NCBI GenBank assembly: GCA_035389185.1
Contig: DAOORK010000001.1
Coordinates: 331,825 to 395,824 of the forward strand
From: Candidatus Woesebacteria bacterium
GTDB lineage: Bacteria; Patescibacteriota; Microgenomatia; UBA1400; MFAQ01
Length of the DNA: 64,000 bases
Direction: 5' to 3'
The number at the start of each line of letters is the position of its first letter. The first letter of the stretch is position 1. Below the pieces are notes generated by a model that ran no database searches, was not told the DNA's origin, and worked only from the letters and a program-made list of their open reading frames with translations. Below are positions 3,931-59,924 of this stretch, piece by piece. The translations under genes were made by a program, and so were the position numbers.

Positions 3931-5463
3931 TTATTTTAGCTTGGGATCAATTTTTTCAATAATGGTGTTCCAGGGTAATGATATTTTTCGAGAAGATGCC
4001 GGAAAATTATTTCTCCAGTTGATTTCACCGCTCATTGTCGTCGGATCGTGTTCGATGATGAGAAAGATCAGATCATGATCCGATTCTTTTTTCTTTGTCC
4101 AAAAAACTGAGTTGTCTTTGATGTATTCCGGAACTCCTGGAAAATATGACATATCACTTGGTTGGTAACCATATTGTTTTGTTCCATACCACCAAAATAA
4201 ATATTGGAATCTTAAATCAAAAACTTGGGGAGTATAGGTATACACTTTGAAAGCACTTCCTGAGGCTTCATGATAAATATTATCAACAACAGTAAGCATG
4301 TTCTTGAGATTGGCCAAATCATTTGAATAACCTTTTTCAACCGACAGATAAGTAACTTTTGTGGAGATTGAGGAGAAAATAGTAAATCCAATAATGAATA
4401 CGGTAAAAAACTTACCCCATGATTTGGCATAAATAATGGTTAGTGCAGAGGCAAAAGCATATATGGAAAATGGTACAAGCCCATATAGATACCAATCTCG
4501 AATGTTAAAGGGAAATATCAGGAAAAATATTAAAAATGCAAAAATAATAAAAAGATTTGTTTTGATAAACTTTGTATTTTCCGAATCACGTTTTCCGAGT
4601 ATTAATGCGAGAGCAATTGTCGCAATAACAAATAACCAAGGAAGTTCGGTGGCTCCGGAAAAAATAGATTTGAAATAGGTAAATCGATTAAGGAGCATGT
4701 CAGATATGGAAAGTTTTTGACCAAGCCAGTCTGTTCCACCAGAGAACTCACCAAGCGTTGATCTGGTCATTAAAAAACCGTGACGAACTTCAAAGACAAT
4801 CTGAGGCAGAAGAGTAACAAAAAAACCTAAAATCAGAGGAATAAGTTGTCTGTCTTTTTTGGATCTTCGGGTATGTAAAAACAAGGAAATGGGGAAAAAT
4901 AAAATTCCGACTGCGGCTTCAACTTGAAGAATAAACCCACATAACAATCCCTCAAGGAATGACGATATTTTTGATTTGTAAAATATAAATAATGGAAGAA
5001 GTGCGGCGAAATAATAGGCTGAATTGGCATTCCAAGAAAATTTTATGGAAAAGGCAGCAATGGGAGAAAATAAAAATAATGAAGCAGAATAAAATGCCAA
5101 AATTTTATTCTTCTTTCTCAAAACAAAATAGATCACAAGAGAAATAATGTGTAAGGTAAGGATCTGGAATCTGACTAGCCATAAAGGATTCCCGCCGGAC
5201 AAGACAAAGGGGATGGAATTAAAATATGCCCAAAAGGGGCCGTAATATAAGCCAATAATATCTGTGGCCGGACCGATGAGGAGAGGTGTTCTGGTGAAGA
5301 TCATACGACGAATTTCGGCCATCTCTCTTGCCTGGTCGTAAGTAAAAGCAATGTCGAAGTCTTTTATTCTCAGGAAACTTAAAACCATCATGGTGATGAA
5401 TAAGACGGCGAAGATCAGGACATCCCAATATTTATTTATGAAATTACGAAACTTTATAAACAT
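3931..5463 (-). CDS. Polytopic membrane protein, putative GT-C-like glycosyltransferase
   Basis: 510 aa with more than 10 predicted TM helices and a C-terminal soluble domain. The glycosyltransferase context supports the call, but no motif was recognised with certainty. Confidence 0.4.
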   Translation of the reverse strand: MFIKFRNFINKYWDVLIFAVLFITMMVLSFLRIKDFDIAFTYDQAREMAEIRRMIFTRTPLLIGPATDIIGLYYGPFWAYFNSIPFVLSGGNPLWLVRFQILTLHIISLVIYFVLRKKNKILAFYSASLFLFSPIAAFSIKFSWNANSAYYFAALLPLFIFYKSKISSFLEGLLCGFILQVEAAVGILFFPISLFLHTRRSKKDRQLIPLILGFFVTLLPQIVFEVRHGFLMTRSTLGEFSGGTDWLGQKLSISDMLLNRFTYFKSIFSGATELPWLFVIATIALALILGKRDSENTKFIKTNLFIIFAFLIFFLIFPFNIRDWYLYGLVPFSIYAFASALTIIYAKSWGKFFTVFIIGFTIFSSISTKVTYLSVEKGYSNDLANLKNMLTVVDNIYHEASGSAFKVYTYTPQVFDLRFQYLFWWYGTKQYGYQPSDMSYFPGVPEYIKDNSVFWTKKKESDHDLIFLIIEHDPTTMSGEINWRNNFPASSRKISLPWNTIIEKIDPKLK

Positions 5464-5464
5464 T

Positions 5465-6547
5465 TCAGAGAAGTTTTTTTAGATTCGAAAAGAAGGATTC
5501 GTGTGAGTACAAGTGTGTTCGTTTTGAGGCAGTTGTTTGCATTTTTCGATACAGCTTTTCATCTTCGATGAGGAGTTTTGTTTTGGTAGCAATTTCTTGG
5601 GCGTTGGAGCAAAGGAATCCTGTACCTTCAGCTAGAATTTCTTTTTGACCACCCTTACCTATGACAATTGGGACACAACCAGAAGCCATACTCTCAACAG
5701 TGGTAATACCAAAATGTTCGACCCTTTCGGGATCAGTTTGTTCATCTATTTCAAAACCTGAAGCATGCCAAAAAAAACGTGATTTGGCATACAGACTCTT
5801 TAATTTATCAAAGCGGGGGTCAACGATAAACTTGATTGGCAACGACTTGGCTTTATCTTTAAGTTTTTCCAGTGTATCTGATTGACCATGACTTCCGCCC
5901 GTAAGAAACAGTTGATAGGCGGGAAAACTCTTATGTAAAATTTTAAAAGCATCAATCAAAACATCTTGGCGTTTAGGATGACTGGGTGAATCAAAACGAG
6001 CTACGGATAAAATTATGTTTTCCTTCTTTCCGGGATTGAAACTTTCAACATCGATTGGTGGATACAAAACAAAGCTTTTTTCTTTTGGAAAATGAGTTTC
6101 ATGAACTGCAGCAGTGAACCGTGAGTTGTAAACAAATTTATGAATAAAAAGAGTTTTAATTTTATTGATTAACGGACTACCGCCGATTGTCTTAAAAGGT
6201 ATCTGGAAATGAACTAGATTGTTTTTCGAAAACAAAAAGGGAAGACTGCCGTCACTGACCCAAAAGATAAGTCCGAAACGGACAGTAAACAGGAGTCTCC
6301 TTAACAAAGATGAGTGACCATGGCAGAGATTGTAGGCATTTTTATTTATTTTTAGTTGCGAAAGATCCAAACCAAAGCGTTCTTGTGCGGCAAGAAGAGT
6401 CTTATTGTCGTTCCAGGCTATTTCAACCGAGTAACCTGCAGATATCAGACCAATGGCAAAAGTAAGACAGTAACGTTCCCCACCTCCAAGAGTATCCAGA
6501 TATGGATCAAAAATTAAGGCTTTTTTCATAGTTTTTCTTCTTGCCAT
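5465..6547 (-). CDS. GT4 (GT-B fold, glycosyltransferase group 1) glycosyltransferase
   Basis: 360 aa. The C-terminal EX7E-type motif GFEIDEQTDPERVEHFGITTVESMASGCVPIV is diagnostic of retaining GT4 enzymes. Confidence 0.8.
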   Translation of the reverse strand: MARRKTMKKALIFDPYLDTLGGGERYCLTFAIGLISAGYSVEIAWNDNKTLLAAQERFGLDLSQLKINKNAYNLCHGHSSLLRRLLFTVRFGLIFWVSDGSLPFLFSKNNLVHFQIPFKTIGGSPLINKIKTLFIHKFVYNSRFTAAVHETHFPKEKSFVLYPPIDVESFNPGKKENIILSVARFDSPSHPKRQDVLIDAFKILHKSFPAYQLFLTGGSHGQSDTLEKLKDKAKSLPIKFIVDPRFDKLKSLYAKSRFFWHASGFEIDEQTDPERVEHFGITTVESMASGCVPIVIGKGGQKEILAEGTGFLCSNAQEIATKTKLLIEDEKLYRKMQTTASKRTHLYSHESFFSNLKKLL

Positions 6548-7335
6548 TCTTTCAATAAATCCTTATCAATTTTTTTGTAGGTATCTGAAAGTGATGGTTT
6601 CCTTTGGGCTTCCCACAATCTTTCATAGGTGAGAAATTTACTAAACATTTGATAAATGATCTCAATCCAACCTTCTGTTCCGTCTCTCCATAAACCCTGT
6701 TTTACCGCTCGGTACCAGAACTCTGTGAGCATGATGCGGACGAAACGCCAACCTTTCATTTGGGGGTGACCCGAGTCTAAAAGCATTCTGGCTTCAGACT
6801 TGGACCAGTTCATAGTGTTGGGTACTTTTTCATCAATATTTTTATGCGACAAGTGAACCATCTGATGCCTCAGTTCACCAATTGAACCTTCGATTTTGGG
6901 TTGCTCGTGAAGCTTTCCTTCCCAACGTTTAAGAGCCGTTTTTTTCATCAAACGAAGAACGAGCGGATCGCCCCAGTGAGTTAAGTGTTTGCCCAAGAAA
7001 ATCTCATAACGACTGATCGTGTATGCCTGATGTTGTGGTGTCTCGATTACAGACCTTATCTCGCGGGCAAGTTTAAGAGGAATTCGTTCATCAGAGTCGA
7101 GATACAAAAGCCAGTCACCTTTGGCCTCTTTTGCACCGTCGTTTCTCCACTTGGAAAAACTATCTCCTGTTGAGTGAACAATTTTGGCACCCAATTTGCG
7201 ACAAACTTCGACGGTGTTGTCGGTTGAACCCGAGTCCACCACAATAACTTCATCAGCAAATAAAGAAGTTTTTATGGCAAGTACTATTTCATCGGGAACA
7301 TTTTTGGCAAGAATGATGATCGATATTTTGGGCAT
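6526..7335 (-). CDS. GT2 family glycosyltransferase
   Basis: The listed 344-aa ORF overlaps the upstream gene. The conserved GT2 N-terminus begins at the internal Met (MPKISIIILAKNVPDE...VVDSGSTDNT), ATG at 7335..7333, directly after the neighbour's stop at 7338. The start was adjusted accordingly. Confidence 0.7.
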   Translation of the reverse strand: MPKISIIILAKNVPDEIVLAIKTSLFADEVIVVDSGSTDNTVEVCRKLGAKIVHSTGDSFSKWRNDGAKEAKGDWLLYLDSDERIPLKLAREIRSVIETPQHQAYTISRYEIFLGKHLTHWGDPLVLRLMKKTALKRWEGKLHEQPKIEGSIGELRHQMVHLSHKNIDEKVPNTMNWSKSEARMLLDSGHPQMKGWRFVRIMLTEFWYRAVKQGLWRDGTEGWIEIIYQMFSKFLTYERLWEAQRKPSLSDTYKKIDKDLLKEWQEEKL

Positions 7336-7337
7336 AG

Positions 7338-8243
7338 TTATTTTATCCAAGATCCTCCTCCTAATTTTCCCACAAAGAAGTCGCGAACAGCTTGTTTTTG
7401 GGCTTTGGTTCCTATAAAAAGCTTTTTGACCGCTTCCCTGAGAAGAGCAATCTTGGTTCGGGGACGGGCATAATCCATACCGAAAAGAAGACGATTGCGA
7501 GTGAGAAAATAATCGTTTAGAGGAGAACCAATACCCGAGCTTTGGGCGACTTTGTGCCAAAGTTTGATGTTTGAATCGACAACAAGTTTATAACCTGCTT
7601 TTTTGATGCGCATACCGAGATCCGAGTCTTCAAAATAGAGACAGTAACGTTCGTCAAAAAGGCCGACTTTTTTGAGAATTTCTGAGCGCACGATAAAAAG
7701 GCAACCGGTGATGAAATCGACCTCTCTCTGACCATCAAATTGACCTTTGTCGACCTCATTGACTCCAAGGTGGTTGGCATAGACGTTGTCCCAGTCGTAC
7801 TGACCTCCAGCGTACCAGATTACCTGCCCAAGTTCGTCTTTTTGATATTTATCTTCAAACTCGAACCCTTTGGCAAAATAAATGAGACCGCCGACAGCAC
7901 CAACATTTTTGTCAGATATTGGTGAGGCCAATATCTTGAGAATCAGGTCTTCCGGAACAACAGTGTCGTTGTTTATCATTACGATGATATCTGTTTCATC
8001 GAGAAGAGCCTTTTTGAACCCTAGATTATTACCGGCAGCAAAACCAACATTGCCGGGACTTTCAACGTATACTGCCTGAGGGTATTTGGAGAGTTTTTCC
8101 CTCAAATCAACCGAGCAGTCGTTGTCCACTACATATACTGTGGAGCTTACCCCCAAGGGTAAGGTGTTTTTTTCAAGCTGCTTCACAACATCGAGAGTGT
8201 CTTGAATACTGTGAAAGCTGACGGTGATAAAACCGATTTTCAT
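7338..8243 (-). CDS. GT2 family glycosyltransferase (rhamnosyltransferase-like)
   Basis: 301 aa with KIGFITVSFHS...VVDNDCS...IVMINNDTVV...CLYFEDSDL motifs of GT2. Confidence 0.75.
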   Translation of the reverse strand: MKIGFITVSFHSIQDTLDVVKQLEKNTLPLGVSSTVYVVDNDCSVDLREKLSKYPQAVYVESPGNVGFAAGNNLGFKKALLDETDIIVMINNDTVVPEDLILKILASPISDKNVGAVGGLIYFAKGFEFEDKYQKDELGQVIWYAGGQYDWDNVYANHLGVNEVDKGQFDGQREVDFITGCLFIVRSEILKKVGLFDERYCLYFEDSDLGMRIKKAGYKLVVDSNIKLWHKVAQSSGIGSPLNDYFLTRNRLLFGMDYARPRTKIALLREAVKKLFIGTKAQKQAVRDFFVGKLGGGSWIK

Positions 8244-8311: not shown

Positions 8312-9862
8312 ATGAGTAAAAAAAGAACTGGATGGATATTGATACTGTTCGTGGTGCTTTTGGCTCTTATGGTGAGATTTGTCAGACTGGATGCTGTCCC
8401 GGCCAGTTTGTATTATGACGAAATTGATTTGGGTTATCAGATAAGAAGTTTGTTATCCACCGGCAAAGATTATCGAGGAGGATTGAGCCCATTTTATCTT
8501 CGCTCTTTTAATACCGATAAAACACCTTTTCCAATATATTTTTCGGTCTTACCGTCTTTGTTTTTTAGTTCTCCCGAGTATCAGGTTCGTGCTGGAGCGG
8601 CTTTGGCGGGGGTGATTTGTGTTATTTTGGCGATGATTTTGGTGTATCAACTTACAGGTAAAAAGAATGCCAGCATTATTACCGGCCTGGTCTTTGCTTT
8701 CTCCCCATGGCAAATCCAGTTTAGTCGAATGGCTTTTGAGGCCATTTTTATGTTGGTGGTTTTCTTAGCTTCAGTATCAGTATTCCTGTACTGGAAAGAC
8801 AGTAAAAAGAATTGGGCGTTTTATTTGTCGGCCGTATTGTTTGGTCTCAATGTTTATACCTACCGTACAATGAGTTTGTTTGGACCTATTTTGGTTGGGT
8901 TGGTGACTGTGATTTATTTCCGAGATTTTTGGAGACAAGGCTGGTGGCGTTTGGGAGTATGGCTTTCAATAATTGCCATTTTTGTCTTGCCTTTTATTTA
9001 TGCCACGACTATTGGTTCGGCTGACCAAGCCAGAATTAATCAAATTTCGGTTTTCTCCGATCCAATGACTCAAGTTAAAGTGTTACGTAACCGAGAAGTT
9101 GACTCAAATGATTACGGAAATCCTCAGATTGGTAAAAAGGCTGTGTGGTGGTCACCTATTTTCCATAACAAAGTATTAACTCCTTTGGTGAATTTTGGCA
9201 GTAATTATTTGAAAAATTATTCTACAGAGTTTTTGTTTTTGACAGGAGATCCAAATGGAAGACACTCGGTAACAAACATGGGCGAGCTACTATTTATTGA
9301 TTCACTGGGATTGATTGTCGGACTGACGTTTGTGTTTAAAAATATCAAAGATAAAAAATATCAACTGTTACTATGTCTTTTGATCTTCTCTCCAGTTGCT
9401 TCCGACCTGACGATGGATGGGGCGTATCACGCCTCAAGATTGATGATCTTGGCTGGTCCGATGCTTCTGATAGTTGGATTGGGATACTTTAGTTTGTTGG
9501 AAATACTATTTAAAAATAAAAAACTGTGGTTAGGTATACCCCTGATTACCGGCTTGTGGTTGTTATCAACTATTTTTTATCTACATCGTTATTTTGTCCA
9601 CTTTCCGATAGAGAGTTCGCGACAGTTTGGATATGGATACAAACAAGCGATGATAAAAATTGCCGATGTTGAGGATCAATTTAAGGCCATCAGATTAACT
9701 AATCTAAACGATCCGCCGATGCTTTATTATTTTTTCTGGAGAAATGAAGCGCCGATTAACGTACAGGAATACGGAACCGCGTATGGAGAAGATGTTTATC
9801 GAAATATGCCTTTGGACAAGATAAAACAAATAAGCTGGGGGGGCAAAACTGTGCACAGTTGA
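8312..9862 (+). CDS. GT-C fold membrane glycosyltransferase (dolichyl/polyprenyl-phosphate-sugar dependent, PMT/ArnT-like), possibly truncated by frameshift at a G7 tract
   Basis: 516 aa. The N-terminal loop YYDEIDLGY carries the conserved DE motif of GT39/GT83, followed by multiple TM helices. The stop lies 17 nt after a G7 homopolymer (9837..9843). A shifted frame continues coding-like for 73 more codons to 10082. Confidence 0.65.
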   Translation: MSKKRTGWILILFVVLLALMVRFVRLDAVPASLYYDEIDLGYQIRSLLSTGKDYRGGLSPFYLRSFNTDKTPFPIYFSVLPSLFFSSPEYQVRAGAALAGVICVILAMILVYQLTGKKNASIITGLVFAFSPWQIQFSRMAFEAIFMLVVFLASVSVFLYWKDSKKNWAFYLSAVLFGLNVYTYRTMSLFGPILVGLVTVIYFRDFWRQGWWRLGVWLSIIAIFVLPFIYATTIGSADQARINQISVFSDPMTQVKVLRNREVDSNDYGNPQIGKKAVWWSPIFHNKVLTPLVNFGSNYLKNYSTEFLFLTGDPNGRHSVTNMGELLFIDSLGLIVGLTFVFKNIKDKKYQLLLCLLIFSPVASDLTMDGAYHASRLMILAGPMLLIVGLGYFSLLEILFKNKKLWLGIPLITGLWLLSTIFYLHRYFVHFPIESSRQFGYGYKQAMIKIADVEDQFKAIRLTNLNDPPMLYYFFWRNEAPINVQEYGTAYGEDVYRNMPLDKIKQISWGGKTVHS

Positions 9863-10088
9863 CGAGATAAACAAACTTGAGCCAGAGACGCTCTACTTGG
9901 TGGCATTTAATAACCTGCCTTTGGACTTTAGAAGCGCGGAAAGAGATAAAGTACCAACAGGAATTAAACTTGTTGATGTGATTTTGTATCCTGACAATGA
10001 AGTGGCATATTACTTAATAACAAGAAACTCTATAAACGGTAAAGCTGTAATGGCTGACAAGGAAAGTGCTTGCAGAAATTAAACTCAG

Positions 10089-11006
10089 TTACGACGACAG
10101 TTTACGTTTAATTTTGAGTAGGAAACGCTTGGTTTTTTTTGATTCAGATTGAATAAGAACTGTCATAAACCAATAACGAAGTTCTCGATATTTCTCCATG
10201 AATAGTTTTTGCCAGATCGGAGTAAAAACACTCGCTTTCTTTGGTTCATGACCCTCAGCTTGCCAAACTTTGAGATAAATAAGCATAACGGAGAACATTT
10301 GTAAGAAAGCAAGAACAAGTCCATGAAGACCATCCTTGTAGCCTTCTCCAGCAAAGAAACGGCTGATAAACTCACTGATTGGTTTGCCAATAATGTCTTT
10401 GGCGTCGAATTTGTAGCCAGAGTCAACAAGCTCTTTGGCTTGCTGGGTGGAGTAGCGAAGAGCTCTTTCAAAATACTCATCGATTGAGTTGTAATGATGA
10501 TGTTCAAGAGCATACTCTTCCTCCGGATCAAGGTTAATTCCGGTACCGGTGGTAATAGGAATTGAATGAATCTCGTTTTGCCATTCAACAGAGTCTTTTT
10601 TGAAAAAACGGATATTGTAATCTGGCCACCAACGTGAGTGTTGGATCCATTGGCCAAAGATAAGATTTTTTCTGGGAATCCTGACAAAGTCAACTGCTTC
10701 TTTTTGGGCGATCTCGATTAGTTTGGCGGCAAGTGATCTAGGAACTCGTTCGTCGGCATCAACAATAAGAACCCATTTCCCCACGGCTTTACTGATGGCG
10801 AAGTTTCTTGCCGGCTCAACATATCCGATCATCTTATGATCAAAGACTTTGTCGGTAAATCTCTTGGCAATTTCCTTGGTGGCATCCGAAGATTCCATAT
10901 CCACAACAATGATCTCGTCAGCAAAAGCAAGAGCTTTGAGACAGTCGGCGATGTTTCTGCTTTCGTTTCTGGTGTTAACAATAGCTGAAATATTTATCTT
11001 GGACAT
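10089..11006 (-). CDS. GT2 family glycosyltransferase
   Basis: 305 aa with ISAIVNTRNESRNIADCL...IIVVDMESSDAT...LIVDADERVP GT2 motifs. Confidence 0.75.
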   Translation of the reverse strand: MSKINISAIVNTRNESRNIADCLKALAFADEIIVVDMESSDATKEIAKRFTDKVFDHKMIGYVEPARNFAISKAVGKWVLIVDADERVPRSLAAKLIEIAQKEAVDFVRIPRKNLIFGQWIQHSRWWPDYNIRFFKKDSVEWQNEIHSIPITTGTGINLDPEEEYALEHHHYNSIDEYFERALRYSTQQAKELVDSGYKFDAKDIIGKPISEFISRFFAGEGYKDGLHGLVLAFLQMFSVMLIYLKVWQAEGHEPKKASVFTPIWQKLFMEKYRELRYWFMTVLIQSESKKTKRFLLKIKRKLSS

Positions 11007-14000
11007 TATTTTTTTTGATAAACCTTAATTTCTCCCGAGTCGTAGATTTTGGTTAGAGATAAATCGTATGGATTAAGGGTAATTTTTTGTAAAGGTGTCT
11101 CGTAAACATATTTTATGTTATTTTTCTGCAAAAAGTTGTTGGCCCAGACTTTATCTTTGGTGTTGTAAAAACGTTGAATGTCTCTTATTCTCGATTGGTA
11201 CTGGAAACCGGTAATATCCAGGTTGATCGTGTCAGAAAGAAATTCAGGCTGGCCAGAAAGGGCGGAGATATATGCTGAGGAAACATAGGCATACAGAGGT
11301 TTGGGACCAGCAACCCAGTCAGCCTTAACATAAATTGGCGAAAGCACTACCCCTTTTTCTTTTGATTTGAGAGTATCTAAAGCTTTCATTTCCGGATAAC
11401 TGACTCGAGAGGGTGAGGTGTTTCCGAGATAGTCTTTTAGGGTACCGATTGACGTAAAGGTTGCTACTAGAAGAAACAGTGTTATCACAAAGACGGCGAT
11501 TGTTTTTGTTCGGAAACGAGAAAGGAGTCGAGATAGATACTCGGCAGTGAATAATCCCAGGAAAAATAGAGAATAATACATGAACTGTATCGTATTCCAA
11601 GGATTAATTTTTTGAGTGATAAATAGAGGCAAAACAATTCCCAATACGATGATTACAGAAACGATCTTTCGAGAGATGTCTGTGTTTTTGTCTTTGGCGA
11701 TGGAGAAAAAACCAAAAATCCGCATACCTAAGTTTCCAACAAGGAAGGCCAAGACAGAGAAAAGGTTTACTGCAAATAACTTAAGAAAATTCCCAGATGC
11801 CTCATAAGCTTGCCAAGCCTCAACAAACTTTGGCCAGTAAAAACGATCATATGAGGCGAAGAGACTACGAGGAAACCAAAGAGGATCGAAGATAAAAGGC
11901 GAACCTGAGAAGGAGGATAGAGGTAGTGTAATTAAAGCTCCGATAATGCCAACCACAATCAAGATCGAGAGACGTCTGGTAAACAAGAGGGCAAGACAAA
12001 GAAGAACAAAGGCATAGATTTTTGTTTGAGCAAGCAAACCACCCAAAAGAGCGAGTTTAATAAATTGAAGTGCTTTTATTTTCCCTTCTGAAGGAAGATT
12101 AAGTAAAAATAATAAGAGAAAAATAAGCGAAAGAGCATAAGGTGGATTAAGAAAAATTGAGGCAGATTGGTTGGCCCAGAAAGATGATTCTCCTGAGAAA
12201 ACATTTTGGCTGGTCAGTAGTTTGGGTATGAAGCCAAAAGAGCCGGCAAAGAAGACAAGAAGAAAGCCAAAAATCTTGGTGGTTTTTGAATAGTGCCATT
12301 TTTCCATTAAACGGTCTAAGAGGAAAACGAGGGCAAAGCAAAACAAAATGGGTAAAAAACGAAAATAAAGGGTGCTCGCCGGAATATTAAAGAACCATGA
12401 TAAAAGACCGGAAAAATAATCAAAAACAAAGTGATAGTTGGTCAATTTTTCACCGGCATACTGAGGATGAGAAAGGTCTAGCGGATTTTGAGAAAACTTT
12501 TCAATTAGTGAAAGATGAAAAATAGCATCATGGCCGTTGGGTCCAAAATACCCTTGACCAAAGGAAAAATTGAGACCATTACGAAATACAGTCAAACAAA
12601 CAATAAAGGCACAGAGAAAACCGAATAAAAGAGTTGAGGGTATTTTTGGTTTGCCTTTCTTGATAATTTTTTTGATAAGTAGAACCAGAAAAAAGAATAT
12701 TACAACCCAGAATAACCAAGAGTACTGAGCATAGTCTTTAAGTGGCGTGTGGGGACTTGCCTGCCAAGTAGTTTCTTGTTTATTGTTTAGTATTTTTATA
12801 TCAGCGGATTCAATGACAGGAGCCACGATATTGACGAATTTGATCGAGTCCGGTAGAAGATATATTTTTTGATTACCATTTTCCAGAGTTATTTGCCAGA
12901 GATCCCATTGTTTGTCATAGGTAGTTTTGAATTGAGAAAGATCAATATTGAGAGTAAGTTCCGATCCTGGTGTTTTGACCGAATCAATAATGGCTGGTAT
13001 TTCGGAATAAAGATCGGTTGTTTGATTGGGAACAGCAAAATAATCTTCATATATTTCCCGATTGTAGACGCGGAAATCAATTATCTGGGTTTGACCGTTA
13101 GCGGTCTTTAAGCCAATACGATAGCGATAACTTTGGTACCAGAACACCTCACCATTTTCCCTATTGGTGGAGTCTAGGGTTCGATAAAAGTATGTGGGGC
13201 TACTTTCCGGATAATAAGCTTTTACGATGTTCCCCAGCTCGGCTAAACTGACATACTCAAGATTATATTTTTCTCTATTTTTTTCCAGTAAACGATAAGT
13301 GCTGCTAATCTCTTTTTGATACAAATCAAGGCTGTAGTCATTTTCTAATCCCAGATTGATATGAGAAAGTTCATTGAATCCTTTCTGGGTATATTGAGCC
13401 AACAATTTTTCAAAATAGGTTGTATCAAGACCATAAGATAGATAATCATTAACCTGAACAGAGTAAGAAAATGCACCGGCTGTTCCGTAAAAGTTATAAA
13501 GGTCTCTTTGGGCCCATCGAACCATAATTAGGTTAATACGATTCTTAGCACTAGCGGCAGGGATCAATGAGTTATTTTTGTCCGGATAATAAGGACTGCC
13601 TACATAGCCTCCCCAAATGCGATAGTGATCGGTGCTGTATTGGTCATCGCAGTTCATAGCAGTAAGAATTGAGTATCTCGTTTGAAGATACTGAAGGGAA
13701 TAGCTATCAAGATCCCAAGCAGATACAGCAGTCGGATAAAAACCAAAACGATCAAAGAAAGCCTTCATATAAGTATCAATTAGTTTCAAACGATCTTTTT
13801 GGGAATAGCCGGATAAGAAAATACGATTGGGATTGGACATGTATGTTCCAGGTGGATAAACAACACCTGCTTGGGCGGTGAGGGATGGTGTGATTTCCAG
13901 AAAAGCTCCGAGAGATTGATTCTTGTCAGTTTCAAAGAGATCAGCGAAATAGGCTGAGATAGTAGCACTCGAAACTGCATCGAAACGGAGAAGCCAGGTA

Positions 14001-14200
14001 ACGGGATAAGCCGAATGAGTGGACTCTTGATACTGGAATCTAGGTAGATCCAGGGGTGTTTGATTTGGCTCTGACCAACCTTCATAACCTCTCACCGGAT
14101 TGGAAATAGTGACGAAGGCATTCTTTCCGAAAGCTAGTGTTGATTGAGGAAACAACAAAAGGATTAAGGGGACAAGTAGAGGAAGAAGTTTCTTAAACAT
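11006..14200 (-). CDS. Large fused envelope protein: signal peptide, ~500-aa extracytoplasmic domain, ~14-TM core and C-terminal domain (putative GT-C-like glycosyltransferase or polysaccharide polymerase)
   Basis: The ORF of up to 1096 aa probably starts at the internal Met (MFKKLLPLLVPLILLLFPQSTLAFG), which gives a classic signal peptide and avoids a 104-nt overlap with the flippase gene. The central region is very hydrophobic. A soluble C-terminal tail follows. Confidence 0.45.
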   Translation of the reverse strand: MFKKLLPLLVPLILLLFPQSTLAFGKNAFVTISNPVRGYEGWSEPNQTPLDLPRFQYQESTHSAYPVTWLLRFDAVSSATISAYFADLFETDKNQSLGAFLEITPSLTAQAGVVYPPGTYMSNPNRIFLSGYSQKDRLKLIDTYMKAFFDRFGFYPTAVSAWDLDSYSLQYLQTRYSILTAMNCDDQYSTDHYRIWGGYVGSPYYPDKNNSLIPAASAKNRINLIMVRWAQRDLYNFYGTAGAFSYSVQVNDYLSYGLDTTYFEKLLAQYTQKGFNELSHINLGLENDYSLDLYQKEISSTYRLLEKNREKYNLEYVSLAELGNIVKAYYPESSPTYFYRTLDSTNRENGEVFWYQSYRYRIGLKTANGQTQIIDFRVYNREIYEDYFAVPNQTTDLYSEIPAIIDSVKTPGSELTLNIDLSQFKTTYDKQWDLWQITLENGNQKIYLLPDSIKFVNIVAPVIESADIKILNNKQETTWQASPHTPLKDYAQYSWLFWVVIFFFLVLLIKKIIKKGKPKIPSTLLFGFLCAFIVCLTVFRNGLNFSFGQGYFGPNGHDAIFHLSLIEKFSQNPLDLSHPQYAGEKLTNYHFVFDYFSGLLSWFFNIPASTLYFRFLPILFCFALVFLLDRLMEKWHYSKTTKIFGFLLVFFAGSFGFIPKLLTSQNVFSGESSFWANQSASIFLNPPYALSLIFLLLFLLNLPSEGKIKALQFIKLALLGGLLAQTKIYAFVLLCLALLFTRRLSILIVVGIIGALITLPLSSFSGSPFIFDPLWFPRSLFASYDRFYWPKFVEAWQAYEASGNFLKLFAVNLFSVLAFLVGNLGMRIFGFFSIAKDKNTDISRKIVSVIIVLGIVLPLFITQKINPWNTIQFMYYSLFFLGLFTAEYLSRLLSRFRTKTIAVFVITLFLLVATFTSIGTLKDYLGNTSPSRVSYPEMKALDTLKSKEKGVVLSPIYVKADWVAGPKPLYAYVSSAYISALSGQPEFLSDTINLDITGFQYQSRIRDIQRFYNTKDKVWANNFLQKNNIKYVYETPLQKITLNPYDLSLTKIYDSGEIKVYQKK

Positions 14201-15677
14201 GTTTAATTTTAAAGTAGTTGATGGTGTTGGTGATAAAGGTAATGCCTTCAACAAGAATAATGGTACCAAAATAAATGGCCGCGGCAAAAACACCAATTAA
14301 GGTTAAACGTAAAACTGAGGTGCCATAGTGAGAAAGAATAGCCAGAAAACCACTCATAACTAGGGTTCCCAGTAAAGGCGTCTTGAGGATGCGCCAGAGA
14401 TTAAATTGAACATATTTACGAGCCATGAAGATTGTGACTATCGAAGATGTGGCAATAATGGCAACGGCGTAAGCAACACCTATGTAACCGTATTTAAGTG
14501 AGAGGAAGGGCATGGTAATCCAAGTCAAACCGGTCCACATGAGCATTAGTTTGAAAGTTGACTTGATGTGACCAGTGGCATTTAAGAGGTTGGTGAGACT
14601 GGTAGAAATACTGGCCCAGGCGGAGTTGTAGAGATAAATATATAAAGGAATAAGAGCGGGTAACCATTTGGTGTATTTGGGAATAATATCAACAAGAGGC
14701 GCGGCAAAGAAACCGAGACCGGCAAGAATTGGAAAAATAGCCAGACACATATATTTGAGACTAACTTCAACGGCACGAGCTAATTTTTCTTTATCATGCT
14801 GTAAACGAGCAAAGGTGGGAAAGGATACTTTGGTGAGGTTGTCCATGACAATTCTAAGTGGCAGGCCTGCCCACTTGCTGGCCCAACCAATATATCCTAG
14901 GCCGGTTGTGCCGATGATCTTGGTGAGAATAATGGTCATGCCATCATCTTTGAGAACTGACAGAAAAGTGTTTGCCTGATAAGGAACTCCAAACCTAAGT
15001 AATGATTTAAGAGACTGACGGTAAATACCAATGATTGGTTTCCAGGGATAAACAAGGTACATGGCGATTAGGCCAACGACTCCTCGACCCAGTACGGCGT
15101 AAGTAAAAGCGTTGATACCATATCCCTTCCAGGCGAAAAATACAGCAACAAAGTTGAAAACAAGAGTTTCAAGAATTTGAGGCAAAATTAATTTGTTGAA
15201 CTTAATCTCTCTTTCAAGCATGATAGAAGGAATGGTTTTGAGGGAACTTAAAAAGAGCGATATGCCCATGGCATAGAGTAGATATAGACCACTCTGATCC
15301 ATGTGGTAAGTAGTCTTAATAAAAGGACTGACGATAAATAAAACGAGTAAAAGCGACAAAACTAGAATCTGCTGAATTGAAAAAGTGGTAGCGAGATCCT
15401 CTTTGGTAATATTTTCTTTTTTTTGGATAAGAGCGGCGGCAAGACCAACATCAGAAAAGTAACCAAGAAAGTTAACTACGGAACTAACAAGATAATAAAC
15501 ACCATAGATATTGGGGTCGAGAAAAATTGTTAGAGCAAGGGTGGCAATAAAAGAAATAATTTGAATCACAAAAGTGCGAGAAATTAAGGCCAACACTCCC
15601 GATATTGAACGGCGTTTGACTTCTTGATACTCAAGTATTTCCTGATTGTCAGGGATGTCGTCGAGCATAAAGTGCAA
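14193..15677 (-). CDS. Oligosaccharide/polysaccharide flippase (Wzx-like, MOP superfamily)
   Basis: 494 aa with about 12-14 TM helices and the architecture and size of polysaccharide biosynthesis flippase family proteins. Confidence 0.65.
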   Translation of the reverse strand: MHFMLDDIPDNQEILEYQEVKRRSISGVLALISRTFVIQIISFIATLALTIFLDPNIYGVYYLVSSVVNFLGYFSDVGLAAALIQKKENITKEDLATTFSIQQILVLSLLLVLFIVSPFIKTTYHMDQSGLYLLYAMGISLFLSSLKTIPSIMLEREIKFNKLILPQILETLVFNFVAVFFAWKGYGINAFTYAVLGRGVVGLIAMYLVYPWKPIIGIYRQSLKSLLRFGVPYQANTFLSVLKDDGMTIILTKIIGTTGLGYIGWASKWAGLPLRIVMDNLTKVSFPTFARLQHDKEKLARAVEVSLKYMCLAIFPILAGLGFFAAPLVDIIPKYTKWLPALIPLYIYLYNSAWASISTSLTNLLNATGHIKSTFKLMLMWTGLTWITMPFLSLKYGYIGVAYAVAIIATSSIVTIFMARKYVQFNLWRILKTPLLGTLVMSGFLAILSHYGTSVLRLTLIGVFAAAIYFGTIILVEGITFITNTINYFKIKHV

Positions 15678-17361
15678 GTCTTAATAATATGAAGATGGAG
15701 CTAAGGGTAAGTAAATCAGAAAAAAGGCGAATGGGAGTGTAACCTATTTTAGCGTAAAGGGAGTGAGTCCCCTGAGGTACGGTAATGATAACCCGACCCA
15801 GGTCCGGATCGTAGGCAGAAGTCACTTTGTGCCCATCCATCTTAGTTACGAGTCCTGGAAAAGAGAAAAGCGGCAACATAATTTTGGCCGAAGAAGAAGA
15901 TACTTTGGCATCCAGTTTCATCCAGTTGGTACCAGAAACAAAGTTTTCTATACCCCCATAACCTTCAATATATTGAGGAATGGTGAAGGCCGGGTCCCCT
16001 GGAGGTGCAGCGGCGGTACGAGGTAAATAATCAAAAATTCCACTGGTAACTTGAAGTTCCCATTGACGCCCGGCCATTTTTTCGGCGAGAGAGACTCTTG
16101 TATGTCTCTCAACATGAAAGAAGGTTATATTGGTGAGAATAATACCCAGTGAGGCGATGACAAATAATAGAGGTTTTACTATTTTTGGAAGACGAAGCTT
16201 GGTAATATAACCAGCGGCTAAGGAGAAGTAAAAAACAATCAAGGCAACTAATCTCCAGGGAAATTGGGCATATTGTAATAAGGAGAGATGATCCCAGATA
16301 AAGAAAGAGCGACTATGAGTGAGAAAAGCATAAACAAAACCAAGGGCTGTGGCCATAAGAACCATCAGGGAGACTGTCTTGTCTTTTTTGAAACGAAAAA
16401 GAGCTATCAACGAAGCAATAAGGACAGCCGCAAGCTGTATTTGACCGACAGAAAAAGACATACCATCTTCGGGACCATAAGTTGAACCGCCATACCCCCA
16501 GAACCGAGAGAAAAAAAGCTGATTAATATCGGCATAGTGGGCCATAAAGTTGAAGTATCCGGAAATCATGGAATCGACATGGACATATTTTTGTTCGAGA
16601 ACTTCGGGAATAAAGAAAAAAGCAGATAAGCCAACTCCCAGAAGGCCAGAAAGAATGATCGGCTTTATCGTCGAGTATTTTTTTGTCCGCCATATCCAGA
16701 AAATTGCCCAAAGTAGAGCACTAGGTGCAAAAACCATGGTCATAACATTGTGAGACGTTAGCTGACCGGCAAGACAGACAGCAAAGAGAAGGAAATTTTT
16801 CCAAGAGAATTTTTTGACGATAAGGTTGTAAAGAAAAAGGAGTACAAAAGGAAACCAAACCATCCCCCAGGCTTCGTTTTGGGCTCCTCGGACATAGACA
16901 TCAACTGAGTGATATGGGGCATAAACATACAAAAGAGACGAAATAATACCTCCCCACTTGCCAAAAAATTCTTTGGCAAGGAGATACATTCCCCAACCAG
17001 ACATAAGAATAGAAAGAACAAACATAATTTTTACCGGCCAAAAGTAGCCAAGCCCCAGTAGAGTAAGCAGTTCCATAGGATAGTAAGGCATAGGAGGGTA
17101 AAACTGCATCAAAGGGTAACCATAACCATATCCCCCATCAGGAACCCAACGGCAGGGTATCTGACCGTCATGGATACACTTATCAAGTTCGTAGAGACGA
17201 AAAACCTGCATGTCATCATGCATCGTGAAGTAGCCAGGAGTGAGAAGGTCCTTAACAGCAGGTAGGAGAAGAATAAATAATAAAAGACCTACCCGATAAC
17301 GCCAGATTATTTTCCATAAGGAGGACAACTTGCCAGTAAAAGTAAACTTCATTGAGTTCAT
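15649..17361 (-). CDS. Polytopic membrane protein, putative GT-C-like glycosyltransferase (YfhO/PMT-like)
   Basis: 570 aa with an N-terminal TM helix, then an FTMHDDMQVF acidic loop, many TM helices and a C-terminal soluble domain. Confidence 0.4.
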   Translation of the reverse strand: MNSMKFTFTGKLSSLWKIIWRYRVGLLLFILLLPAVKDLLTPGYFTMHDDMQVFRLYELDKCIHDGQIPCRWVPDGGYGYGYPLMQFYPPMPYYPMELLTLLGLGYFWPVKIMFVLSILMSGWGMYLLAKEFFGKWGGIISSLLYVYAPYHSVDVYVRGAQNEAWGMVWFPFVLLFLYNLIVKKFSWKNFLLFAVCLAGQLTSHNVMTMVFAPSALLWAIFWIWRTKKYSTIKPIILSGLLGVGLSAFFFIPEVLEQKYVHVDSMISGYFNFMAHYADINQLFFSRFWGYGGSTYGPEDGMSFSVGQIQLAAVLIASLIALFRFKKDKTVSLMVLMATALGFVYAFLTHSRSFFIWDHLSLLQYAQFPWRLVALIVFYFSLAAGYITKLRLPKIVKPLLFVIASLGIILTNITFFHVERHTRVSLAEKMAGRQWELQVTSGIFDYLPRTAAAPPGDPAFTIPQYIEGYGGIENFVSGTNWMKLDAKVSSSSAKIMLPLFSFPGLVTKMDGHKVTSAYDPDLGRVIITVPQGTHSLYAKIGYTPIRLFSDLLTLSSIFILLRLALYARRHP

Positions 17362-59850: not shown

Positions 59851-59924
59851 GGTCCCGTCGTCTAGTGGTCTAGGACATTTGGTTCTCATCCAAAAGATCG
59901 TGGGTTCGATTCCCACCGGGATCA
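59851..59924 (+). tRNA. tRNA-Glu (anticodon CUC)
   Basis: Hand-folded cloverleaf: acceptor GGTCCCG/CGGGATC, D-arm TCGTCTAGTGGTCTAGGACA (tRNA-Glu-like), anticodon stem TTTGG/CCAAA with loop TTCTCAT (CTC), T-arm GTGGG-TTCGATT-CCCAC, discriminator A. CCA is not encoded. Confidence 0.85.

Follow-up and report, generated by a model that had tools for sequence, protein, structure and literature searches.

Does a run of seven G's near the 3' end of a membrane glycosyltransferase gene in a Candidatus Woesebacteria genome represent a switch, a mutation or an error in the assembly? We addressed this question in a window of 64,000 nucleotides (NCBI GenBank assembly GCA_035389185.1, contig DAOORK010000001.1, positions 331,825 to 395,824 of the forward strand) with a G+C content of 40.9%; all coordinates given below are those of the window. 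A sequence-only reading had pointed out the run, likened it to the classic slipped-strand switch of surface-glycosylation genes and named an assembly or sequencing indel as the alternative. That glycosyltransferase genes suffer frameshifts at homopolymers is well known.

The run lies at 9837-9843 (+), in the context AAG CTG GGG GGG CAA, inside an ORF at 8312-9862 (+), just as had been described. This ORF encodes 516 amino acids, ends in ...KIKQISWGGKTVHS and is identical to the public protein P0001. The stop that closes it shortly after the run is a TGA at 9860-9862; the distance between the two is 16 nt rather than the 17 originally counted. In codon phase the run reads TGG GGG GGC, which corresponds to the ancestral in-frame TGG GGG GCA (Trp-Gly-Ala) plus one G. 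With one G fewer or two more, the frame remains open for 73 further codons to 10082 and a TAA at 10083-10085, as predicted, giving 589 aa for G6 and 590 aa for G9, whereas G5 or G8 would lead to a stop after 518 or 519 aa. When the 589-aa G6 version, hereafter the repaired protein, is compared with the window using tblastn, the match leaves frame 2 and resumes in frame 3 where the tract lies, at codon 511 of 589 and 87% of the gene length. On the basis of homologues, synteny and the structural model, the interrupted gene extends over 8312-10085 (+). Its shifted-frame continuation, residues 511-589 of the repaired protein, occupies 9844-10085 (+), and the first codon of this tail, GCA, starts at 9843. 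The continuation stops just before the next gene, as had also been noticed: a convergent GT2 glycosyltransferase of 305 aa (10089-11006, -; Pfam Glycos_transf_2), the stop codon of which starts at 10089 and which forms a conserved boundary at the 3' end of the GT-C gene.

In this window, as a null scan of its ORFs revealed, a shifted frame often stays open beyond a stop codon because operon genes overlap. The resulting null distribution was uninformative, and we used a scan for homopolymer-linked frame breaks in its place. The observation exceeds chance because the shifted frame is, by homology, the conserved C-terminus of the family. A protein search returned about 110 homologues of 560-600 aa covering 98-100% of the repaired protein, in agreement with the expectation that orthologues would be about 590 aa long, and the sole 100% match to this query is the 516-aa P0001, named 'glycosyltransferase family 39 protein, Candidatus Woesebacteria'. 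Aligned with 59 homologues, the shifted frame carries the motifs C-x-x-x-E-I, LPLDFRS, VPxGIKL and YPDNEVAYYLITRD as well as the C-terminal Cys. Identity to the 14 closest homologues amounts to 62-77% over residues 511-575, compared with 63-72% over residues 1-510. In three syntenic contigs (L009-L011), complete gene calls of 588-599 aa stop 0-10 nt before a convergent GT2 gene, tail to tail; in a fourth (L012) the called GT-C and GT2 genes are 116 nt apart. These comparisons identify the coding-like continuation as a real, conserved C-terminus, corresponding to the second half of a predicted C-terminal alpha/beta domain. A further search with the C-terminal 185 aa found four distant fragments only and no further alleles of this species. 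A search for the repaired-protein locus in metagenome and genome contig collections recovered only orthologues of 51-67% identity, none of the same species.

The assignment of the enzyme to GT-C was upheld by profile, predicted fold and sequence motif, which together identify a GT39/PMT_2-like glycosyltransferase. The gene product scores 34.8 bits against Pfam PMT_2 (curated cut-off 26.1) and 28.3 bits against PMT (cut-off 22.7). An AlphaFold model of the repaired protein, with 71 homologues as input, has a pLDDT of 94 and a pTM of 0.92; it consists of a long helical membrane core followed by the C-terminal alpha/beta domain, with helices at residues 443-456, 469-476, 481-487, 500-503 and 516-520 and sheet strands at 459-463, 504-507, 526-531, 551-558 and 564-571. 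Foldseek matches this model to AglB, ArnT, PglB, STT3, ALG12 and Pmt4 in the PDB with a probability of 1.0 (7e9s, 5ezm and 5f15 are among the matches). The protein resembles ArnT, PMT and the oligosaccharyltransferases AglB, PglB and STT3 in its multi-helix membrane core and in an acidic motif after the first transmembrane helix, and ArnT also in having a C-terminal soluble alpha/beta domain, but it is set apart from these solved GT-C structures by a sequence identity of only 9-15% and TM-scores of about 0.3-0.5. Residues D36, E37 and D39 are invariant in the 71 sequences and lie directly past TM1 in the first extracytoplasmic loop, which suggests a catalytic role for D36-E37-x-D39. Judging from the names of the homologues found here, members of this family occur only in CPR genomes of the Microgenomates type. 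Two contigs with orthologues 67% and 51% identical, L007 (CAZUFH010000001.1) and L008 (CAZQDQ010000001.1), are titled 'uncultured Pseudomonadales bacterium'; this label looks doubtful, as the other family members that carry an organism name are from Woesebacteria or Daviesbacteria.

The gene is part of a surface-polysaccharide or glycosylation cluster of this Candidatus Woesebacteria lineage (Microgenomates, CPR). Other members of the cluster are a GT1-family gene (5465-6547), two GT2 genes (about 6526-8243), a 1064-aa membrane protein (11006-14200, -) and, at the far end, a gene of the Polysacc_synt_3 family of Wzx-like flippases (14193-15680, -). The neighbouring genes are intact, and their lengths agree with those of orthologues. 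As in Gtr-type glycosylation (GtrA, GtrB and a GT-C enzyme), the GT-C gene adjoins GT2 genes and a flippase-family gene, and by analogy this arrangement would be compatible with an enzyme that takes its sugar, outside the membrane, from a polyprenyl-phosphate-linked donor; unlike in the three-component Gtr systems, no GtrA homologue was identified here. Phase variation of Salmonella gtr is epigenetic (Dam/OxyR) and not SSR-based. A tblastn search with the repaired protein found a single copy of the GT-C gene in the window, ruling out compensation by a paralogue within it. The 1064-aa protein has a soluble N-terminal half, a multi-TM C-terminal half and no Pfam match at E <= 0.01, and is kept in synteny (1063-1064 aa) beside GT-C and GT2 genes in L001 and L010. 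At the edge of the glycosyltransferase cluster, a 515-aa ORF (3931-5478, -) also lacks a Pfam match and corresponds to a 510-aa gene call in L001 and L002. The only Rfam match in the window is a single tRNA gene (59851-59924, +).

Homopolymers are error-prone sequence, and the simplest challenge to any biological reading is that G7 is a sequencing or assembly artefact and that the true genome has G6 and an intact 589-aa gene. The perfectly preserved downstream frame would be expected under this explanation, and the public assemblies are 100% identical over 7.5 kb and might share reads. The recurrence of the run speaks against it. At consensus level, at least five contigs that come from different assemblies carry G7 with identical flanks, which makes an assembly error unlikely. 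These contigs differ in length and pipeline and include a 538-kb contig of GCA_029561095.1 (L001), an NCBI TPA assembly and a 443-kb contig of JGI 3300010355 (L002); proteins from two contigs of about 905 kb (P0121 and P0122) end in ...SWGGKTVHS. The same G7 and flanks occur in JGI 3300009782 (L003), a distinguishable strain with three SNPs in 7 kb, whose protein (P0123) has two amino-acid changes. Moreover, a JGI assembly resolved the G6 of a sister strain, described below, without trouble.

The wider window points in the same direction. It contains 47 A/T runs of at least seven, none of them linked to an intragenic frame break, which speaks against a systematic error at homopolymers. No homopolymer in the window other than G7 breaks a long frame inside a gene; two other candidates for such a break proved to be ordinary gene junctions. 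Taken together, we consider an artefact very unlikely, and the indel alternative of the sequence-only reading is weakened. On the forward strand, homopolymers of T outnumber those of A (T6/T7/T8 = 103/27/9 against A6/A7/A8 = 56/9/2), an asymmetry that probably reflects mostly minus-strand genes with A-rich (Lys) codons.

The closest orthologues have ISWGAK(I/V)C at the tract position. In the closest of all (L009, 73% amino-acid identity) the codons are AGT TGG GGG GCA, a G6 in frame, whereas in L010, L011 and L012 (about 70% identity) the tract is interrupted by GGA in TGG GGA GCx. More distantly, L005 keeps the Trp-Gly with a G4 run only (TGG GGA AAG), and L004 and L006-L008 have neither Trp-Gly nor such a G run. 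Across these orthologues (L004-L012), the tract is not maintained as a repeat.

An intact allele of the same species came from a protein cluster containing the 60-aa 'hypothetical protein' that is annotated downstream of the break. The same cluster holds P0128, a 298-aa partial protein from a 965-bp contig of JGI 3300029959, which reads through ...KIKQISWGAKLCTVDE...ACRN without a break. Compared with the window, the DNA of this contig (L013) has 18 mismatches over its 965 nt (about 98% identity), and it has AGT TGG GGG GCA, that is, G6. As judged from these sequences, intact G6 and truncated G7 alleles coexist within the species at about 2% nucleotide divergence. Among close relatives only these two tract-length states were seen, in two lineages. 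Upstream of the tract, the two strains share 219 codons with six synonymous and four non-synonymous differences; downstream, 79 codons have four synonymous differences, one non-synonymous, and no stops or indels.

The disruption expected of a decaying pseudogene is present, with 516 aa against 560-600 aa in the full-length orthologues. Decay beyond the frame break is absent, in that there are no stops, indels or loss of identity, although with only 79 codons this comparison has low power. Within that low power, the pattern suggests either that the frame was shifted recently compared with the time since the strains diverged or that the tail is still under selection.

We assign a probability of roughly 0.6 to the reading that G7 is a genuine, recent +1 G slippage allele, an ordinary SSR frameshift in a gene that either is on its way to becoming a pseudogene or has lost its function under selection. 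A single G would have been inserted into TGG GGG GCA, most likely by replication slippage, converting G6 to G7, shifting the frame at codon 511 and yielding the 516-aa product. According to the model, this product keeps the whole transmembrane catalytic core up to the truncation at residue 510, and lacks helix 516-520 as well as three beta-strands (526-531, 551-558 and 564-571) out of the five in the C-terminal domain; these elements are all carried by the shifted tail. By analogy with ArnT, the C-terminal domain would be extracytoplasmic. The 516-aa product is probably inactive or crippled, and perhaps unstable; with an inactive enzyme, its glycan step would be lost in the G7 lineage. As the out-of-frame tail is undecayed, the mutation should be young. 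The G7 allele would thus be polymorphic within the species and stable, at consensus level, in its own lineage.

Several points weigh against this reading of a recent slippage allele. The G7 assemblies may partly re-use the same reads, for example through TPA re-assembly of a JGI sample. The truncated protein keeps D36, E37 and D39 with the rest of the catalytic core and could retain or change its activity. Finally, a G6/G7 polymorphism in a surface-glycosylation gene within one species is also what phase variation predicts.

The run could accordingly be a poly-G contingency locus, frequently switching the GT-C gene between an on state (G6, G9) and an off state (G7, G8) and thereby varying a surface glycan, for instance in phage escape or host-cell attachment. 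The tract does toggle the frame of a surface-glycosylation gene from within the ORF, the on and off alleles are separated by about 2% nucleotide divergence, and the tail beyond the break has stayed intact, most of its changes being synonymous. In the PhasomeIt scheme, G7 reaches the cut-off of at least seven for G/C tracts, set for Campylobacter, and the on state, G6, falls below it (PMC6321876). According to the same paper, validation of switching exists for tracts of at least eight, and tracts at the cut-off length may mutate at <1e-5 (PMC6321876).

Other observations count against frequent switching. The contigs of the G7 lineage, at least five in number, all show G7, with no variation in length at consensus level, and a search of about 15 billion proteins found this strain's protein in no full-length version corresponding to G5, G6, G8 or G9. 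A scan of the metagenome contigs for the tract, with its flanks fixed and the G count left free, gave zero matches; this collection evidently does not contain the species, so the zero there says nothing about tract variants. The GGA interruptions in L010, L011 and L012 and the absence of the tract from more distant orthologues are difficult to reconcile with a maintained repeat, and the tract is placed far from the 5' end of the gene. There is also no sign of a set of switch genes: G7 is the lone G/C run of at least seven in the 64 kb. Dinucleotide-preserving shuffles of the window give 4.6 +/- 2.9 such runs, which are thus rarer in the real sequence, and the one G7 by itself is not over-represented. 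On balance, we regard a high-frequency contingency locus as unlikely.

The comparison with known systems leads to a similar assessment. The locus is like the poly-G/C systems of Campylobacter jejuni, Neisseria and Helicobacter pylori (wlaN/cgtA, lgtA/lgtC and futA/futB) in that a G run lies inside the ORF of a surface-glycan glycosyltransferase, a change of one G separates full-length from truncated protein, and both lengths are present among close relatives. The tracts in those organisms are usually at least 8-14 nt long, conserved between strains, often near the 5' end and numerous in each genome, and their length varies within single strains. Here, by contrast, we see a G6/G7 tract that is unconserved and does not vary within its lineage, that lies 87% of the way along the gene and that is the only one in the 64 kb, a combination that fits poorly with the 'classic' switch that had been proposed. 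The phase-variable enzymes of Campylobacter, Neisseria and Helicobacter are mostly soluble GT-A or GT-B proteins, whereas this one is GT-C. Any homopolymer indel can revert, and a short, unconserved tract would not amount to a demonstrated, evolved high-frequency switch.

A second point of comparison is provided by homopolymer frameshifts in small genomes such as Buchnera, in which a conserved gene is likewise split, its downstream part remains intact and two ORFs are annotated. In the Buchnera-type cases the runs are long, consist of A/T and occur in genomes very rich in AT, and poly-A frameshifts in Buchnera are partly rescued by transcriptional slippage. The run described here is short and made of G, and nothing points to a mechanism of rescue.

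Nevertheless, the G7 allele might still yield full-length protein through +1 slippage of the ribosome or of RNA polymerase: a glycine tRNA would slip from one GGG to the overlapping GGG, or the polymerase would slip on the G run, restoring ...SWGAKLC.... A +1 shift on U-GGG-GGG-C would give perfect re-pairing in the P site and reproduce the ancestral peptide, GGG is the rarest Gly codon (7.4 per 1000), and an undecayed tail would be consistent with continued translation. Set against this, GGC, which would occupy the A site, is not a rare codon (13 per 1000), there is no stop or starved codon at the site, and the RNA structure around it is unremarkable (z = 0.42). Of the hallmarks of a prfB-type +1 frameshift, P-site re-pairing is present, and a slow A site or stimulator and conservation are missing. 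To our knowledge, known programmed frameshifts are conserved; this one is not, with all orthologues and the sister strain in frame. We therefore consider recoding at this tract highly improbable.

Having considered these alternatives, we return to the recent slippage allele and its treatment in public annotation. The fragment downstream of the break appears there as an 'ORF' of 60 or 61 aa (9897-10082, +), recorded as a 60-aa 'hypothetical protein' (P0124-P0127, including HOX96122.1) and as a gene call in L002 and L003. The locus of this call is not flagged as a pseudogene. We also looked at whether the 516-aa product and the 60-aa fragment could form a split protein, and rejected this: there is no convincing ribosome-binding site upstream of 9897/9900, and the fragment has neither a signal peptide for the extracytoplasmic side nor helix 516-520. 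HOX96121.1 (the 516-aa GT39-family protein) and HOX96122.1 are parts of one frameshifted gene of about 589 aa and should be flagged as such.

Within a single Woesebacteria species, the two alleles provide natural intact and truncated versions of a conserved enzyme of surface glycosylation. It seems to us quite unlikely that the G6/G7 tract works as a switch by which an episymbiotic member of the CPR/Patescibacteria controls a surface-glycan GT-C enzyme, and we found no report of phase variation in CPR/Patescibacteria in the literature searched. If true, it would be, as far as that literature goes, the first SSR contingency locus in the CPR radiation, and it would mean that surface glycans vary stochastically in these ultra-small bacteria, either as a response to phage or for attachment to host cells. 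If switching is real, it would be new for the CPR radiation; if it is not, the locus would represent a commonplace slippage mutation or a pseudogene at an early stage.
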